From: Ignavibacteriota bacterium
GTDB lineage: Bacteria > Bacteroidota > Ignavibacteria > UBA10030
Assembly: GCA_022616555.1 (NCBI GenBank)
Contig: JAKEEG010000066.1
Span: 1,702 to 65,701 of the forward strand
DNA length: 64,000 nucleotides
Direction of reading: 5' to 3'
Position 1 is the first letter of the stretch, and each line of letters starts with the position of its first letter. The notes beneath the pieces are model-generated. The model was not told where the DNA came from. It worked only from the letters and a program-made list of their open reading frames with translations, and searched no databases. This document shows positions 20,646-49,425 of this stretch, in pieces. The position numbers and the translations under genes were made by a program.

Positions 20646-20665
20646 CCTCCCCGCTCACAAAAAAT

Positions 20666-20748
20666 GTCATTGCGAGGCGCCTTATGCCGAAGCAATCTCA
20701 CCGCCGAAGAAAAACGAAATTGCTTCGCTGGAAAACGCTCGCAATGAC
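20666..20748 (+). repeat. two-stem palindromic element E2 (GTCATTGCGAG...CGAAGCAATCT...GAAATTGCTTCG...CTCGCAATGAC) followed by a T-run; probable terminator of the upstream gene
   Basis: Homologous to E1 (9206-9290), with compensatory changes in both stems. It is followed by TGGCTTATTTTTTT. Confidence 0.7.
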
Positions 20749-21421
20749 TGGCTTATTTTTTTGAATGGTGTTTTAAGGATTACTGTCATCTCATACCTAC
20801 CTCTTAACTCCTAGCGTTTTAAGCAGTTATACGATTTTACATTTTCATTGCATTTTTCTCTTGACTTTTCCATTTATCATCATTACATTAAATATCAATA
20901 ATTAGTTAGTATAGCTGTTATCCTGATTCAGCAGGGTAATGGCACCTTCGGGCGTACGGTCTGCAGCTGCCCGCTCGGAGTAAGCGAATTATCAATGTGT
21001 TTTCCTAACTCACTGGCGTCCCCCTCAGCGTCCTTTGTAAGGGCCTACGACACGAAATCCGCTAAGTGCGGACTTCGGGCTCTGGATGCTCTGGGTCGGA
21101 GCCCGCGGGCCTGCCCGCCATTTTTGTGGCGGGGATGTTGCCCGTTCGGGCCGTGCCGAGTGAATCTATTTGTCGTCAACTCTCTCTTAGCCTCGGTGCG
21201 ACGCCTTTCAGTTAGGATAAATTAAAGAAAGCAGGTAATCAGTAAGATAGTAAGCAGTTAGACAACAGCAGATACCGCCACGATCGCCAACAGGCAAGCC
21301 AGACGCTTTCCAAAGAAAAAATCACAAAAGCGTAAAGGCAGGCATGCCTGCCGAAGTGTTTTCGGCACGTAGGCAGGGGTGTGTACATTGGGAGAAGTGG
21401 TCTCAAAAGCTCGAAGGGATT

Positions 21422-21482
21422 GTCATTGCGAGGCGCCTTTTGCCGAAGCAATCTAACCCCAGAAGAAAAACGAGATTGCTTC
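21422..21482 (+). repeat. truncated copy E3 of the two-stem element (lacks the 3' outer arm)
   Basis: Near-identical to the 5' 60 nt of E2. Confidence 0.6.
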
Positions 21483-21574
21483 GTCAGAGATGGAATCCTT
21501 TTTGTACTTAACAATGTCGAGAGTCTTCAACAATTCCTACAAAACTTTCCTGGAGGAATGGAACAGAGAAGATA

Positions 21575-21664
21575 AGAAAGTGGGGGCTTGATTTATCAAG
21601 CCCGTGTTATTTTGCAATCGTAGGGGTTTGATGAATCCATTTGGGTTTGATGAATCAAACCCCT
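21575..21664 (-). terminator. hairpins downstream of the MFS transporter gene (GGGCTTGAT-tt-ATCAAGCCC; GTAGGGGTTTGAT...ATCAAACCCCTAC)
   Basis: A 13-bp stem overlaps the stop codon region of the minus-strand gene, with an additional 9-bp hairpin next to it. Confidence 0.5.
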
Positions 21665-37053: not shown

Positions 37054-37090
37054 CAAATAACAAAGCCCCGTTGTTGAAAAACAACGGGGC
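37054..37090 (-). terminator. rho-independent terminator of the OMP gene (GCCCCGTTGTT-tttca-ACAACGGGGC followed by TTTGTTATTTG on the minus strand)
   Basis: A 10-bp GC-rich stem with a downstream T-rich run on the transcribed strand. Confidence 0.7.
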
Positions 37091-37112: not shown

Positions 37113-37868
37113 TCACAATCCAATCATCAATGTCACAGTAAAGTAAAGTGCACCGATACTTCTGCTATTATTGATGAAATGGTCGCTATCACCTGCGGCA
37201 TAAAGCGGGTCAGACTCATCGTTGAGAGCGAGATAAGAATCGAGACGCCGGTCGTTCGTTAAGTTGGGGTCCTCCCACTGTTTGCCGAACAGATTCATCG
37301 CTTCATAATGCGCGGCGATATCGAGATTCATGACCGGTCCAAGGCTCAATTGTGCGCCGACTGTTCCGCCTAACCCGACGCGCGTTGCGGACTGAAGCTC
37401 GTACGTGCCACTTGAGACCTGAGAGATTCCCTGCAGCACCGTCTCACCGTTAATGATATGCACACCAACGTGCGCACCTAAGTACGGTGTGATGGGCGCG
37501 GCTGGGAGGGAGATGCTGAATTCAGGTCCCGCCTTGAACGAGAGGATGCTGTGTGAAACCTCCATCTTCCCCTGTCCGGGCTCCGATTCACCGGTATTGC
37601 TGAAGGACGAGTATCCGATTTCTCCGGCGACTCGCAAGCCTAATAATCCGACGCGTGCTTTACCATGCACATTATAACCCGTTGACATGCCGTAGGCTGA
37701 CCCGGCGTAGTGGTCGATTGTTGATCCGCCGTAATCGCCCTGCGGCAAGCCAATGCCAAGTCCAACCCCGCCCTGAAGCGTGATCTGCGCGGCAACGGGT
37801 ATCGTGCCGAGCGCAAGCGCCATAAAGACTATTGCCAGGAGCACAGTTCGTGATAGTACGAGATTCAT
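37113..37868 (-). CDS. outer membrane beta-barrel protein (OmpA-like porin family)
   Basis: 251 aa with a signal peptide, alternating hydrophobic beta-strand pattern and a C-terminal aromatic residue. Confidence 0.65.
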   Translation of the reverse strand: MNLVLSRTVLLAIVFMALALGTIPVAAQITLQGGVGLGIGLPQGDYGGSTIDHYAGSAYGMSTGYNVHGKARVGLLGLRVAGEIGYSSFSNTGESEPGQGKMEVSHSILSFKAGPEFSISLPAAPITPYLGAHVGVHIINGETVLQGISQVSSGTYELQSATRVGLGGTVGAQLSLGPVMNLDIAAHYEAMNLFGKQWEDPNLTNDRRLDSYLALNDESDPLYAAGDSDHFINNSRSIGALYFTVTLMIGL

Positions 37869-38031
37869 ATCAGTTCTCCTCTGTTTGCATGAGAGTACAT
37901 CGTTTGTGGTTCACATCAAACGTCAATGTACTTCACGCGCAAAGAATAGCCTATGACGGCGCGCAAGCATAAAGTGCACTTTAAATAGCTGAATAAGTGG
38001 CTTTTGTTGTGACGCGCAGTTGGTTTTTTTT

Positions 38032-38568
38032 CTATTCAAAATACCCTGTGTAAGTCCACTCGCGTCGTCTGCCAGTTTCGTCTATATACACAGTAATGGT
38101 ATTGAGTTCGTCCAACTTGGAAACTCCAGTGAATCTAATTGTATCTTTTAAAGCCACGGTTACACGGTACACACCATTTTCTGTTTCAGCCATCTCCTCG
38201 GGAATTTCGTAACCGAGATAGGAACCTGCGCCACCACCTTCGGAAGCCGGAAGAGTACGATACTGATAGGCGTTTGCACAAAGGTTGTTCAGTTCATTAA
38301 TCATACCATCTTTGTTCCAGCTAATACTTTGAGCGCTGAACATGCTTAAACCGACGGCAATCGCGATGCCAATGATAATTATCGTAAAAACACCAAAGAA
38401 TGTCCCGACAATACCAAGTATCATACCGCCTTGAGTCAAACCTTTTGCGCTGGCAGCTATAAGTCCAGCGCGGATTTTTTTCAAATCACTGTTGCCCATC
38501 ACCCACGCAGGGATTCCAAGGAAAGGTCCAAAGAGCAGTACGCTCAGAATGCCAAAAGTGAGTATCAT
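38032..38568 (-). CDS. DUF4190-like membrane protein with C-terminal soluble domain
   Basis: 178 aa with N-terminal TM helices in a pattern typical of DUF4190. The gene is AT-rich relative to its neighbours. Confidence 0.5.
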   Translation of the reverse strand: MILTFGILSVLLFGPFLGIPAWVMGNSDLKKIRAGLIAASAKGLTQGGMILGIVGTFFGVFTIIIIGIAIAVGLSMFSAQSISWNKDGMINELNNLCANAYQYRTLPASEGGGAGSYLGYEIPEEMAETENGVYRVTVALKDTIRFTGVSKLDELNTITVYIDETGRRREWTYTGYFE

Positions 38569-38768
38569 TGCGCCGCGACCGGGATCTGTTGCTTGTGTGC
38601 AGATGACTGAGGATTTTGTTGTGGGGTTGTCATCGAGAATTACTCACTTTTGTGTGGAAGATTGCTCGGCTGTTATTCTATCGTTGAACGGTTGTACATA
38701 ACAATCCCCCCCTCGCTGTAGATATACAGAGAGGACACGCTCTGCCCAAAAAATATTAAGCTGCTCAG

Positions 38769-39239
38769 TTATTTATTCAAAACCAGACAGCTCGCCATCA
38801 TGTCGTGCAGGCCTTGCTTTTTCTCCGTGAACGCCACCATAATATAGCCGATGTAGATGATCAGTCCGGAGAGAATTTTTCCGAAGTACCTGCCAGTCGC
38901 GCGTCCGAAGGAAATCCGGTTGCCGTTCATATCGGTAACGACAATGCCGAGCGCCATCTTGCCGAGCGTCGCCTGCTTGCTGGAAGACTCCATCAGAGCG
39001 AAGTAGAGCCATTGGAGAACAAAAAAGATGAGGCCAACGAGCATCATGCCTCCGAAAATACCGGCAGCCATAGCGGCTTGTTCTTCTTCACTCATGTATT
39101 GCATATCCTCGGCGTTCATCGAAGCAAATCCGGCTAAGCCGACGCCGAAGACCATCATCACAATGACGCATACAGCGCCAATAAGAATACCGTCGATAAG
39201 GTAAGCGGCGAACCGCTTCCAGAATCCTGCGTATGACAT
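38769..39239 (-). CDS. RDD family membrane protein
   Basis: 156 aa with the RDD-family motifs RFAAYLIDGILI and GLHDMMASCLV. Confidence 0.75.
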   Translation of the reverse strand: MSYAGFWKRFAAYLIDGILIGAVCVIVMMVFGVGLAGFASMNAEDMQYMSEEEQAAMAAGIFGGMMLVGLIFFVLQWLYFALMESSSKQATLGKMALGIVVTDMNGNRISFGRATGRYFGKILSGLIIYIGYIMVAFTEKKQGLHDMMASCLVLNK

Positions 39240-39302
39240 AACATACCTCCCGAAGTTGTGAATGGATGTACGGTACGAACGACTGGTTAAGGTGTGCGTA
39301 TG

Positions 39303-39785
39303 TTAAAAATTAGTTGAAAAGGAAAAGGATATTAGCTGTTTCCTTTCAACGTCGTCAAGTAATGTGCCTGAACTTGATCTTGATGTCATATTGTATTTTG
39401 TAACAGCCTCTTTCATCATCGACTTTGCATTGACGTCGAGAACGATGGCTGCGACAATGACTACACCACCGGCTACTGCCAATGCAGTATTAGACGGTTT
39501 TGATGCTAATCCGTAGCCGACAGAAAAACCACCCGCAAAAGAAAAAACATCTGCAATTGTCGATTGAGTATAACCGGATGAGTACAAAGCATATATCGAG
39601 GGATCGGGAGACGATTGTAGCATCTGTGTAAACTCTGCTGATGTAATCTCTTGATTCCCTCTTTTGTAGGACAACCCCCAAAATCCTTCATCAAATGCCA
39701 ATGTGTCCGTCCGTGAAGTCTGGGTTAAAAGACTCGGTGAATATAACAAGAGAAACAATATCAGTATAGATGTTGATTTAAACAT
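39303..39785 (-). CDS. hypothetical membrane/secreted protein
   Basis: The start is placed at 39785 (MFKSTSILILFLLLYS, a signal peptide, with GGAGAAAAAAAT upstream). There is a C-terminal TM segment. The gene is AT-rich. Confidence 0.45.
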   Translation of the reverse strand: MFKSTSILILFLLLYSPSLLTQTSRTDTLAFDEGFWGLSYKRGNQEITSAEFTQMLQSSPDPSIYALYSSGYTQSTIADVFSFAGGFSVGYGLASKPSNTALAVAGGVVIVAAIVLDVNAKSMMKEAVTKYNMTSRSSSGTLLDDVERKQLISFSFSTNF

Positions 39786-39939
39786 ATTTTTTTCTCCATA
39801 GACGATTGATTTTTTCTTACACACTAACGGACTGGGCTAACCGCTACTCATTGAAGCTTGAGTTCAATTCGCTCATCATCCATCAAGATGATCGACTGAT
39901 CCAGAACTTGTTGACCGGTAATATCCTTGTTCTTGTACT

Positions 39940-40797
39940 TCAGAACGGTTTCCCTGGGAATGAGGAAACGGTAGAGGACATTTGTGCCGGCTGAGTATGT
40001 TTCTGCAAAACTCTTTGCCTCTCCAACAATGGAAAGGTCGTAGCCGTAAAAGGCCTCTGAATCTCCGAGCTGCTCATGAAGGGGGCAAGCGCTCTTTTGA
40101 CGACCTCGTCAAACAATGTTTTCGCTATATCATATTTACTCAGTTTTAAGGAATTATACGTATTAGTGTCGATAAATTTGAGTGTGAGATACTTTTTCTC
40201 TTTAAAAGACACGATTTGTATTGTTTGAACTTCCATGTAGGTATCGGAACGAATGCTTGACCGTAATGTGTCGATGATATTAAGGATATTCGCTTTGAGC
40301 GCCATCCCTTCCTGGGATGCGAGAAAATCGGGGTCAAAATAGTCGGTTGGTTTTACCAGCTCTACGGTTTCGAATGCAGTTGGTTTTTCGAGAGAGTAGT
40401 CTTCACCGTATTCTGCGTTCAGCGTCCCGCTCTTTTCGTAGTATCCATCCTTAGTGACCCTGTAATGGAGTTCCGATCTGTACGACCTTGGGTACTCATC
40501 TCCCGGTGCGGCGGTTGCACGGAATGATATGGAGATGAGCCCATCCGAATTGGTCATGACTGTTGTGTCTTGAACAAGTCTGTTAAGGTCAAAGGCAGAA
40601 TAATGAACAGATACACTCTCAGCGGGAAGTCCATAAACATCCACAATCGATAACGTATAGGTGTGGGTTACTGGTAGAGCCGGTTTTCTCTGAGGAATGT
40701 ACGTGAGATCGTACGGGGCGCAACCCGCGCTCACATAGAATGCGCCTACTCCGAGTACAAATCCCCAAAGAGTAAGGAGGAATTTTTGATTCTTCAT
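39940..40797 (-). CDS. hypothetical lipoprotein (odd low-complexity C-terminal tail; possible frameshift or decay)
   Basis: 285 aa with a signal peptide and lipobox-like VSAGC. The body is AT-rich, whereas the last roughly 50 codons are GC-rich and low-complexity. Confidence 0.4.
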   Translation of the reverse strand: MKNQKFLLTLWGFVLGVGAFYVSAGCAPYDLTYIPQRKPALPVTHTYTLSIVDVYGLPAESVSVHYSAFDLNRLVQDTTVMTNSDGLISISFRATAAPGDEYPRSYRSELHYRVTKDGYYEKSGTLNAEYGEDYSLEKPTAFETVELVKPTDYFDPDFLASQEGMALKANILNIIDTLRSSIRSDTYMEVQTIQIVSFKEKKYLTLKFIDTNTYNSLKLSKYDIAKTLFDEVVKRALAPFMSSSEIQRPFTATTFPLLERQRVLQKHTQPAQMSSTVSSFPGKPF

Positions 40798-40823
40798 AGA
40801 CTTTCATCGTCCCCAAACATCAG

Positions 40824-41279
40824 TTAGAACCATTGCTTTTTCTGGACGACGTACTCCTGCTCAAACTCCTCGTCGGTTTTTGTGAGATACAGGATTCCTT
40901 CAACAAGCGCGATGACGCCGAGAACAATGTTCGGAATAAACAACAGGATCCACGTGACGGCAAAGCCTATGGTGTTCGTCAGCAGGTACACGAGTCCGGG
41001 ACCCGTGAAGCCCAGATAAAATTTATGGATGCCCCATCCGCCCAGAAGAATGGCGAGGAGTCCCGCGGCGACTTTGTTTTTCGACCCTCCCGTTGAGCCG
41101 ATGGCAACATATACGGCCTTCGCCTGGTTCTTTTCGATTTCGAAATCAACAGTCATGCCGCGTAGCGGGGTGCCGGTGCCTTTCCACTCGGAGCCGACAA
41201 ACGTGTAGCGCTTACCGTCTGTAGCTGAGATGGTGCCGCTGTTGGATTGAATGGTGAAGTCGAGGATTTGGCCTTTCAT
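40824..41279 (-). CDS. TM2 domain-containing protein with N-terminal small beta-rich cytoplasmic domain
   Basis: 151 aa. The C-terminal region GGWGIHKFYLG, followed by two TM helices, is the TM2 domain signature. Confidence 0.7.
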   Translation of the reverse strand: MKGQILDFTIQSNSGTISATDGKRYTFVGSEWKGTGTPLRGMTVDFEIEKNQAKAVYVAIGSTGGSKNKVAAGLLAILLGGWGIHKFYLGFTGPGLVYLLTNTIGFAVTWILLFIPNIVLGVIALVEGILYLTKTDEEFEQEYVVQKKQWF

Positions 41280-41374
41280 GCGTTCTCCTTACTGAGTAAA
41301 GACGGCATACGGTGCGAAAAGCTATGCCAAATGTAGAGAATGGCTTTTTGAAAGTCAATGTCTTTGACCTACAA

Positions 41375-41405
41375 AACCTGTGAGGTTTCTGAAACCTCGC
41401 AGGTT
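41375..41405 (-). terminator. hairpin AACCTGCGAGGTTT-ca-GAAACCTCACAGGTT (minus strand) just after the NFACT gene stop
   Basis: An inverted repeat with one G-U position. It shares the ACCTGCGAGGT core with the hairpin at 2806-2839. Confidence 0.5.
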
Positions 41406-41412
41406 TATAGTG

Positions 41413-47670: not shown

Positions 47671-48975
47671 ATGAATGAGTCTAGACTGAAGAATGCTATC
47701 GTCCTCCGCATGGTTATTGTTGGTTGTCTTTCCCTTATTTTGCTTATCCCGACGATTTTTATCGATTCGCTGATTGATGAACGTCAAGAAAGGCGCCAGT
47801 CCGCCACCACCGAGGTGAGCCAAGGCTGGGGAGGGGCGCAGACGCTTGTTGGCCCGATCATCACCGTTCCCTATAAAACATATTATAAGAACGATAAGGG
47901 GGATATGCTGCATTCGATCAACCACGCGCATTTTTTGCCTTCGGAACTGAATATCCGCGCCGCGGTGCAGCCTGAAATCCGTTACAGAGGAATTTATGAA
48001 GTCGCTCTCTACCAGGGACAATTTCTTGTCGAAGGCAAATTTGACAACATCGATTTTGAAAGGTTCGGCGTAGCACCTGAAAACGTCGTGTGGAGGGATG
48101 CCATTGTCAGTTTTGGCGTATCGGATCTGAAGGGGATTCGCGATACAGTTGTTCTCAAGTGGAATCAACGTTCGTATCCTTTGACGCCCGGAGTGATTGC
48201 TGATGGACTGATGAAATCGGGCATGACATTTCGACCGTTGGTACAGGCTTCGCTCTCGGAGATGAGCTTCTCGCTGCCGGTGAACCTCAACGGAACGGCG
48301 GAAATTTCGTTTGTCCCGGTTGGCGAAATAACGCACGTGTTCATGGGGTCTAGTTGGAGCGACCCGAGTTTCGTCGGCGGGTTTCTGCCCACTGTGCGGG
48401 AAGTCGGTGCAAACGGATTCAAGGCAGAATGGAAAGTCTTGAGCCTGAACAGGAATTTTCCGCAGGCATGGGTTGGTGACGGGCACAATCTTCAGGAGTC
48501 CTCCTTTGGGACGCGACTGCTGCTTCCCGTGGACCACTACCGGAAATCCGAGCGCACAGTAAAGTACGCGCTGTTGTTCATTGCGCTCACATTTGCGTCG
48601 CTGTTTCTCTCCGAGATGATGACGAAAACGGCGATCCACCCGATTCAGTACACGCTTATCGGATTTGCGCTCATTCTCTTTTATCTGTTGCTTCTCTCGC
48701 TTTCAGAACACATTGGCTTTGACACCGCCTATGGTGTCTCAGCCTTGCTGGTGATCGGGTTAATTTCGTTCTACACGAAATGGATTACAGCGAAAGCGAG
48801 AGTAGCTGTCGTCGTGTTTTTCGTACTTATGGTTCTTTATCTGTTCCTGTACGTGACCCTGCAATTACAAGACTATGCGTTGCTGTTCGGAACGCTGGGC
48901 TTGCTGCTGACGCTGTTTTTGATCATGTATATCACGCGCCATGTCGATTGGTTTTCTCCGGAGTCGATCACCTAG
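47671..48975 (+). CDS. creD: cell envelope integrity inner membrane protein CreD family
   Basis: About 434 aa with an N-terminal TM helix, a large periplasmic domain and a C-terminal multi-TM region typical of CreD. ATG at 47671; the ORF-track TTG is at 47659. Confidence 0.75.
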   Translation: MNESRLKNAIVLRMVIVGCLSLILLIPTIFIDSLIDERQERRQSATTEVSQGWGGAQTLVGPIITVPYKTYYKNDKGDMLHSINHAHFLPSELNIRAAVQPEIRYRGIYEVALYQGQFLVEGKFDNIDFERFGVAPENVVWRDAIVSFGVSDLKGIRDTVVLKWNQRSYPLTPGVIADGLMKSGMTFRPLVQASLSEMSFSLPVNLNGTAEISFVPVGEITHVFMGSSWSDPSFVGGFLPTVREVGANGFKAEWKVLSLNRNFPQAWVGDGHNLQESSFGTRLLLPVDHYRKSERTVKYALLFIALTFASLFLSEMMTKTAIHPIQYTLIGFALILFYLLLLSLSEHIGFDTAYGVSALLVIGLISFYTKWITAKARVAVVVFFVLMVLYLFLYVTLQLQDYALLFGTLGLLLTLFLIMYITRHVDWFSPESIT

Positions 48976-49029
48976 AGCCAGCAGACGTAGCAGAGAATCT
49001 TTATATTTACGGAGTGGATAGTACTGTAG

Positions 49030-49270
49030 GACAAAGGGAAATATCTGTTAGATTGTTTTTTGTCACTTCTTTGCTCGTGCAAAGAAGTAACCAAGAAAGC
49101 ACGCCGAAATCGTATCTCACGCTCATGATACCTTCCCGCTTGCCGTGATTTCAGCCCCTTTTGACTTTTACCATGATTTTTCGTTTGATACTAAGTGGGC
49201 TGAAATCAAACGCACGTTATGAGCTTCCCTCTCACGCCGCCGTCGATTTCGGTTCCCCGCACTCAAAAAC
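49030..49270 (+). repeat. roughly 240-bp structured repeat, copy B (same backbone as 47238-47527, without the central insert)
   Basis: It shares the 5' hairpin (CACTTCTTTGC-tcgt-GCAAAGAAGTA) and the nested inverted repeats. Several differences between copies are compensatory or G-U compatible. Confidence 0.7.
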
Positions 49271-49425
49271 ATTTCGTGAAAAGCTTTTTTTTCTGAACTT
49301 ACCATTCACAGTTGATGTTAATTTGCAGGTTGACAACTTGTGAATAGCGTTTTTAAAAAATATATTTTGAGAATTCGCGCTTTTTGTTGAACTTCGATTA
49401 ACCGTTTAGTATCATTACAGCCCCG

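Follow-up and report, generated by a model that had tools for sequence, protein, structure and literature searches.

TM2 proteins (PF05154; YozV-like in Bacteria, TM2D1-3 in eukaryotes) are built on a two-helix membrane module, and to our knowledge no bacterial member has a known function. DUF4190 (PF13828) is a two-helix, Gly-rich hairpin, and the only characterised member of the RDD family is a Na+(Li+,K+)/H+ antiporter from Halobacillus andaensis (PMC5996927). We analyzed a row of genes in which modules of these kinds stand side by side, at 37113-41279 on the minus strand of a 64-kb stretch (here called the window) of contig JAKEEG010000066.1, from a bacterium assigned to the Ignavibacteriota. 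The original prediction, made from the letters alone, took the row for a cluster of six small envelope proteins with a probably acquired, AT-rich core. The row is best read as a backbone, NFACT-TM2-RDD-OMP-PRAI, in which OMP is an outer-membrane beta-barrel, plus two insertions. The six genes are not one functional system.

The map of open reading frames (ORFs) of the window places six consecutive ORFs in this interval, and every product is a membrane or exported protein. Coordinates and hydropathy agree with the prediction of six same-strand genes for membrane or secreted proteins, with a signal peptide or transmembrane (TM) segments present in 6/6. Pfam gathering scores were exceeded by three of the six (TM2, RDD and OMP_b-brl), and the other three had no significant family. 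The TM2 gene (40824..41279) encodes 151 amino acids (aa). Like other TM2 proteins, its product contains the two-helix module above the Pfam threshold (45.8 bits versus a cut-off of 27.9, E = 7e-12, residues 66-112). Unlike them, it adds a conserved N-terminal soluble domain of ~60 aa, which has no signal peptide and whose sole match was a weak one to CspC (E = 0.24). More than 1485 homologues were found, the best 120 of which are 70-92% identical over the full length. The OMP gene (37113..37868; 251 aa) matches PF13505 (OMP_b-brl; 37.7 bits versus 28.7, E = 3e-9), and its product starts with a hydrophobic segment ending in …PVAAQ that qualifies as a signal peptide.

The RDD gene (38769..39239; 156 aa) lies between these two. 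Its product has the full-length Pfam match of the RDD family (PF06271, 106.5 bits versus 24.1, E = 1.8e-30, residues 3-149 of 156) and three TM segments by hydropathy. Candidates for the conserved Arg and two Asp residues (R9, D16 and D146, in the expected motifs WKRFAAYLID and LHD) were recognized by eye on the translation. The H. andaensis antiporter comes from another phylum, and the likeness is one of family only. Ion or small-solute transport is our best guess for the window protein, because the only characterised member of the family is that antiporter (PMC5996927). As a side observation, residues 63-155 of the RDD protein (38769-39050) match positions 380-472 of the 476 positions of the PADLOC model PD-T4-6 (E = 2e-14). 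The PD-T4-6 candidate defence protein apparently ends in an RDD-like membrane domain, a match at domain level only.

Base composition was measured in two ways: as GC content at third codon positions (GC3), with the 52 other ORFs of the window as reference (mean 0.62, standard deviation 0.076), and as the correlation of tetranucleotide usage between 1-kb windows and the mean of the 64 kb (mean r 0.69, standard deviation 0.10). The lowest GC3 of the window (0.36, z = -3.4) belongs to the gene for a 160-aa exported protein, Sec160 (39303..39785). The next lowest values among the six genes are those of the gene for a 178-aa membrane protein (38032..38568; GC3 0.43, z = -2.5) and of the gene for a lipoprotein candidate, Lipo285, whose called ORF of 285 aa spans 39940-40797 (GC3 0.48-0.52, z = -1.9 to -1.3). 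The values for TM2, RDD and OMP are 0.67, 0.66 and 0.60 (z = +0.7, +0.5 and -0.3). Tetranucleotide correlations drop to 0.21-0.33 at 39001-41000, the minimum of the entire 64 kb, and to 0.38 at 37751-38750. Both measures speak against a uniform composition. The three genes that had been singled out as AT-rich are indeed the strongest compositional outliers in the window, and their deviation is of the kind expected of an acquired genomic islet. They are not contiguous, since the RDD gene, of normal composition, intervenes. The only other ORF of the window that matches their AT-richness, at 1213-1596 on the plus strand (GC3 0.375), encodes a 23S rRNA-intervening-sequence protein (PF05635, 5e-38) and sits between two similar permease-like genes.

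Relatives of the locus were gathered by a metagenome scan seeded with the RDD protein, which returned more than 518 related stretches. The best 80 loci (48-74% identity; numbered with the prefix L) were searched with all proteins of the window and their ORFs were mapped. The nearest relatives share a conserved row, NFACT-(TM2)-RDD-(OMP)-PRAI. Locus L018 carries TM2 (84% identity), a 62-bp spacer, RDD (74%), a small hydrophobic membrane ORF of ~80 aa, and PRAI (78%). In L025 a remnant of TM2 is followed by RDD (71%), a 161-bp spacer, OMP (55%) and PRAI, and L028 holds YicC (87%), NFACT (73-74%), RDD (64%) and PRAI (82%). The order NFACT…RDD…OMP recurs in L020, L021, L023, L026 and L031, and OMP orthologues of 42-55% identity lie downstream of RDD in L020, L021, L023-L026 and L031. 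RDD is therefore found in synteny with NFACT, OMP and PRAI, and TM2 is near RDD only in the two closest of the 80 loci. None of the three AT-rich genes was present at the syntenic locus in L018, L025, L028, L019-L024, L026 or L031. Other genes occur there. A 140-aa membrane protein is encoded between RDD and OMP in L021, L023, L026 and L031; in L019 its gene comes straight after RDD. An extra large peptidase-like gene is present in L026 and L031, and a dehydrogenase-like gene stands between NFACT and RDD in L019, L020 and L031. An attempt to establish synteny through NFACT was abandoned, the contig scan having given only two relatives of 40-43% identity, too distant for use; the ORF map showed no cluster after NFACT in L003, and tblastn searches of L003 and L004 gave no match to any of the six.

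Set against the conserved row, the window contains a first insertion of ~1.6 kb, with Lipo285 and Sec160, between TM2 and RDD, and a second of ~0.9 kb including spacers, with the 178-aa gene, between RDD and OMP. The best database homologues of the AT-rich genes are only 54-64% identical, versus 74-92% for the backbone genes. Two close homologues of the 178-aa protein stand beside IS110, phage-like or defence-like genes: L014 has primase, HNH, HATPase and RelA_SpoT genes at this place, and L017 has genes of the IS110, lambda Ea47-like and AAA kinds. Together with the absence of the AT-rich genes from the syntenic locus of relatives, these results support the proposal that the genes were acquired. 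The proposal of a single islet embedded in the cluster gives way to two insertions on either side of a native RDD gene. The TM2 slot of L025 offers a parallel. There, an AT-rich gene for a 205-aa SHOCT-domain membrane protein (L025:237-904; GC3 0.36, in a contig of 0.54 overall GC otherwise) replaces TM2 except for its last 17 codons and ends immediately before that 3' remnant. Low-GC cargo of another kind thus entered this slot in an independent event.

We consider it probable that genes have turned over at two slots flanking the native RDD gene, with at least two low-GC acquisitions and with at least one of the three acquired genes disrupted in frame. A native row of TM2, RDD and OMP, set between an NFACT/RqcH-like gene and PRAI (trpF), would have contained two gaps beside RDD, slots at which small accessory genes for envelope proteins turn over. 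In one event, ~1.6 kb of foreign low-GC DNA with the lipoprotein and 160-aa exported-protein genes would have entered the TM2-RDD gap. In another, a gene for a DUF4190-like hairpin joined to a pilin-fold domain (~0.9 kb) would have entered the RDD-OMP gap. The composition, the synteny, the broken frames and the folds are direct results, whereas the direction of the change (gain in this lineage and not loss in others), the number of events and the decay are what we infer from them. The lipoprotein and pilin-fold genes would now be under relaxed selection and are probably decaying, because the former is frameshifted and the latter misses both an intact start and the zinc ribbon carried by its closest homologues (described below).

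The region resembles small genomic islets and integration hot spots in its deviant GC3 and tetranucleotides, its absence from the locus of relatives, its lineage-varying cargo in the same slots, and the probable decay of this cargo. Unlike them, it has no integrase, transposase, tRNA target or direct repeats, it comprises two insertions (sub-kilobase to 1.6 kb) in place of a single island, and its cargo consists of small envelope proteins only. Several points weigh against turnover by acquisition. No integrase, transposase or flanking direct repeat was found at either insertion (the repeat search gave short repeats at chance level only), no tRNA lies between 30 and 48 kb of the window, and no mobility domain occurs among the six genes or their flanks. 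Low GC3 can also stem from low expression or fast evolution. The related loci are short metagenome contigs, and the same genomes could hold the AT-rich genes elsewhere. Loss in several relatives is a formal alternative. The frame disruptions could be systematic assembly errors common to assemblies of related samples. In addition, a pilin-like gene that follows RDD in another clade hints that the pairing of these two genes, at least, may not be accidental.

Some of these points suit a different account, in which the AT-rich genes are ancestral, fast-evolving, weakly expressed and lineage-specific, and were lost in the sampled relatives with no horizontal gain. The missing mobility signatures are as expected under this account, small envelope genes do evolve fast, and even the native OMP reaches no more than 42-55% identity in relatives. 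We nevertheless regard it as unlikely, given that the genes would have to have been lost several times over, separately in L018, in L025, in L028 and in the L020-L031 group. Moreover, the tetranucleotide signature, which goes beyond GC3, is the most deviant in the window, and the nearest homologues lie on contigs of other composition and context, some with IS110 and phage-like genes. As to the source of the AT-rich genes, a phage or defence origin was considered and rejected, because none of the three has a match in PHROGs or PADLOC. Among the six proteins, only the TM2 domain matches phage families (PHROGs).

The neighbourhoods of homologues elsewhere bear on a second account, in which all six genes form one co-functional envelope operon, a module of TM2, RDD and DUF4190 type with a lipoprotein and an outer-membrane barrel, and composition is incidental. 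Its attraction is plain from the layout: all six genes share one strand, spacers measure 26-63 bp among the first four and 163-200 bp around the fifth, terminator-like hairpins stand at both ends of the row, and 6/6 products are envelope proteins. The SHOCT membrane protein in the same slot of L025 indicates that small membrane modules do gather here. However, three of the six is the most that any relative has side by side. The neighbourhoods of TM2 orthologues of 74-82% identity are of three unrelated kinds, none with RDD, OMP or DUF4190-like genes, and the homologues of the lipoprotein are in unrelated contexts with no TM2 or RDD nearby. Contexts seeded from the family of the 178-aa protein (including L014, L015, L017 and L099-L105) likewise contain no RDD and no TM2. 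Clustering of the neighbours of RDD over the 80 loci recovered only lineage-specific synteny. Furthermore, the lipoprotein gene is frameshifted and the start of the 178-aa gene is disrupted. The operon is thus largely refuted by the scattered neighbourhoods, and we hold it to be very improbable indeed. The original prediction had stated that TM2, RDD and DUF4190 modules recur together. Homologues of each were instead found in unrelated neighbourhoods, with one clade in which a pilin-like gene follows RDD as a partial exception. The genes being scattered in relatives, the cluster does not stand as a unit. A literature search for co-occurrence of TM2, RDD and DUF4190 retrieved nothing relevant, with DUF4190 appearing in a single unrelated preprint.

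The partial exception concerns nine loci (L035, L046, L048, L053, L058, L066, L067, L072 and L083) in which a 128-aa pilin-like protein, homologous to the C-terminal portion of the 178-aa product (39-46% identity), is encoded 0.2-2.5 kb downstream of RDD. These pilin-like genes have a normal GC3 (0.54-0.66). Because flanking peptidase genes are common to them, the nine loci appear to represent one clade and hence one further independent juxtaposition. The 178-aa gene of the window is nearer to forms with a zinc ribbon (57-64% identity) than to the 128-aa RDD-linked forms, and its own juxtaposition with RDD therefore arose independently. One could suppose a genuine functional partnership between RDD and the pilin-fold protein, with the 178-aa gene as a xenologous replacement at a functionally constrained position and the other two AT-rich genes as unrelated cargo. 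The nine loci and the independent origin of the juxtaposition in the window speak for such a pair, but these loci look like the outcome of one event, no RDD gene occurs in the contexts seeded from the pilin-like family, and in the closest relatives of the window that slot is either empty or taken by other genes. We judge it highly improbable. A combined proposal goes further, and we rate it as decidedly unlikely: the gaps flanking RDD would be a dedicated hot spot that exchanges envelope cassettes (pilin-fold anchors, SHOCT or PH-like membrane proteins, orphan lipoproteins, the 160-aa family), and the pilin-fold protein would be a functional partner of RDD. If true, this would mean a non-filament use of the type IV pilin fold that has gone unrecognised, with the pilin domain anchored through a DUF4190-like hairpin and, in the majority of homologues, connected with a zinc ribbon in the cytoplasm.

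The 178-aa protein had been assigned to DUF4190. It gave no DUF4190 match, nor any Pfam match, at E <= 1, and the assignment had to be relaxed. A homologue without zinc ribbon (P0019) matches DUF4190 with 26 bits against a cut-off of 35 (E = 8e-6), and precomputed PF13828 labels appear only on more distant homologues (P0031 and others). The hairpin is consequently described as DUF4190-like, a sub-threshold sequence resemblance. The protein shares with DUF4190 a two-helix, Gly-rich hairpin with the pattern GIPAWVMG…DLKKIRAG…G…GMILGI; unlike DUF4190, it has no profile match, and it has an extra TM helix and a pilin-fold domain. From the N-terminus, the layout is a two-helix hairpin, a third TM helix that continues as alpha1, and a periplasmic pilin-fold domain. 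Structural modelling predicts for this soluble C-terminal domain a type IV pilin fold, in which an extended alpha1 helix lies against an antiparallel beta-sheet. Identity to type IV pilins and pseudopilins (Neisseria meningitidis PilV, 5v23; Pseudomonas aeruginosa PilE, 4noa; GspK, 3ci0) is 8-15%. In contrast to these proteins, alpha1N is here the third TM helix of a polytopic protein and not the N-terminus, and the fold is preceded by the DUF4190-like hairpin and, in homologues, also by a cytoplasmic zinc ribbon.

A class III signal peptide has Gly at -1, Phe or Met at +1 and Glu at +5, and is cleaved by prepilin peptidase. Neither such a peptide nor Glu5 nor a conserved G|F(M)xxxE motif was found in the alignment of the 178-aa family, so the domain is pilin-like in fold and lacks the signal peptide that defines a type IV pilin. 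No genes for assembly of a pilus or a type II secretion system were found in the flanks within the window or in 11 contexts of the family, in a non-exhaustive search based on precomputed Pfam labels. For this family, 59 homologues were found. The closest (57-64% identity) have ~227 aa and carry an N-terminal Zn_Ribbon_1 domain plus a linker rich in Pro, Thr and Gln, neither of which is encoded by the window gene, and short relatives of 120-128 aa begin with MGQQQLLL. Some contigs hold the short pilin-fold genes in tandem pairs (L067:6724-7899 and L101:474-1279), an arrangement often found for minor pilin genes.

Three-frame translation of 38569..38633, compared with the N-termini of homologues, revealed a 5' region in which the conserved codons DPGRGA are in frame upstream of the called ATG, with no in-frame ATG, GTG or TTG before them. 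An ATG at 38633-38631 in another frame opens a 22-codon ORF (38566-38633; MTTPQQNPQSSAHKQQIPVAAQ) whose TGA overlaps the called ATG (ATGA). We read the 5' end of the gene as disrupted, and the nucleotide sequence is identical in an independent assembly (GCA_022615685.1; L002). The ATGA overlap would allow coupling by termination and reinitiation, and the truncated gene may still be translated. A remnant of the zinc ribbon upstream of the gene, suggested by a MAFFT alignment, was rejected, local alignments being no better than those of shuffled sequences (z = 0.4, 1.2 and 0.0).

In a set of 5.8 billion proteins, Lipo285 found only four homologues. They align to residues 41-240 and then continue into a strongly conserved C-terminus of ~70-80 aa that is absent from the window ORF. 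tblastn located this missing C-terminus in another frame (63-66% identity over 83 aa, from 40099 to 39851), with its stop codon at 39848-39850, so that the full frameshifted gene spans 39848..40797. The switch of frame falls at a run of five C at 40081-40085 (GCCCCCTT), one base fewer than in the frame of homologues (…ALAP|LHEQLGDSEAFYGYDL…), and one added C would restore …ALAPLHEQLGDSEAFYGYDL…. The odd tail of the called protein is therefore out-of-frame read-through after loss of one nucleotide. An identical product of 285 aa is annotated on another contig as well, and the frameshift is consequently reproducible. The tail had been described as GC-rich and of low complexity, possibly a scar. 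The scar is real, in the form of the frameshift, but the tail is not GC-rich (49% GC versus 45% in the rest of the gene and 52% in the window). The consensus of lipoboxes is [LVI][ASTVI][GAS]C. That of Lipo285 is non-canonical (VSAGC, with Ser at -3), and homologues have FFSC, LFSC or LSAC. Every homologue that possesses an N-terminus keeps a Cys downstream of the signal h-region, and the family is, by sequence, a probable lipoprotein family and a near-orphan.

The third acquired gene, that of Sec160, retains an intact ORF. The order of elements in its product is a signal peptide, a small helical region, GGFxxGYGL, one TM segment (100-118), and a strand at the C-terminus whose last residue is Phe. 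HMMER searches of 1.84 billion representatives identified 152 related clusters at E <= 1e-3, 16 of which were recovered at E <= 1e-10. These relatives have the same length and layout, with a YN motif between the TM segment and a terminal strand that usually ends in Phe, and no Pfam family convincingly matches them. Most members finish with a strand of alternating hydrophobic residues, the last residue being Phe (…SFSFSTNF, …GLGLRINF; 39303-39350 in the window). It resembles an outer-membrane beta-signal, yet the protein also has a TM helix of inner-membrane type.

What looked like a tidy six-gene envelope cluster is thus a native three-gene row with two acquired patches, and neither annotation nor further work should treat it as a system. 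This correction is the main value of the analysis, the turnover itself being ordinary, as is a small acquired islet in a syntenic backbone of known membrane families. The locus nonetheless gives a compact example of repeated gene turnover at one position without mobility genes in an uncultured lineage of the Fibrobacteres-Chlorobi-Bacteroidetes (FCB) group. Two gene models need repair, those of the lipoprotein gene and of the 5' end of the 178-aa gene. The small family that joins a zinc ribbon, a DUF4190-like hairpin and a pilin fold gains a first structural handle on its periplasmic part, and two unnamed families are delineated, the 160-aa exported proteins (~150 cluster representatives) and the near-orphan lipoproteins (five members). 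The domain combination and the two unnamed families are small unreported curiosities.

The row is flanked on one side by the NFACT/RqcH-like gene, divergent from yicC, and on the other by PRAI (trpF) and a long S49 peptidase gene. The flanking genes are housekeeping genes, and nearby genes bear a type IX secretion system sorting tail. A terminator-like hairpin after the OMP gene (37065..37090, minus strand; 11-bp stem and T-rich tail), detected by a consensus scan only, would close the row on its 3' side. In the gap that separates the stop codon of NFACT from the TM2 gene, a repeat search found a near-perfect palindrome (41374..41406; 16-nt arms, 1-nt spacer, 94% complementary) that may be the terminator of NFACT and thus the 5' boundary; alternatively, it could be a candidate protein-binding site. 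A promoter scan gave seven hits against 6.2 expected from shuffles and was uninformative on operon structure. Proteins identical to the 178-aa product (P0001) and to the lipoprotein (P0060) are labelled 'Anaerolineae bacterium' and 'Ignavibacteriae bacterium' in other assemblies. Given these conflicting labels, at least one public metagenome-assembled genome with this locus is probably mis-binned. The NCBI labels leave the taxonomy uncertain, within or near the FCB group.

An Rfam scan of the whole window returned no matches. Elsewhere in the window, ~1 kb at 20646-21654 is poor in ORFs, has atypical tetranucleotides (r 0.35-0.44) and contains two copies of a 63-nt element (20665-20727 and 21421-21483; 92% identical, 756 bp apart; TGTCATTGCGAGGCGCC…GCCGAAGCAATCT…GAAATTGCTTCG), a repeat that may be similar to a miniature inverted-repeat transposable element. 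Finally, a patch of low GC (0.41-0.42 per 500-bp window) lies at 48901-49400, between a CreD gene and the next ORF.

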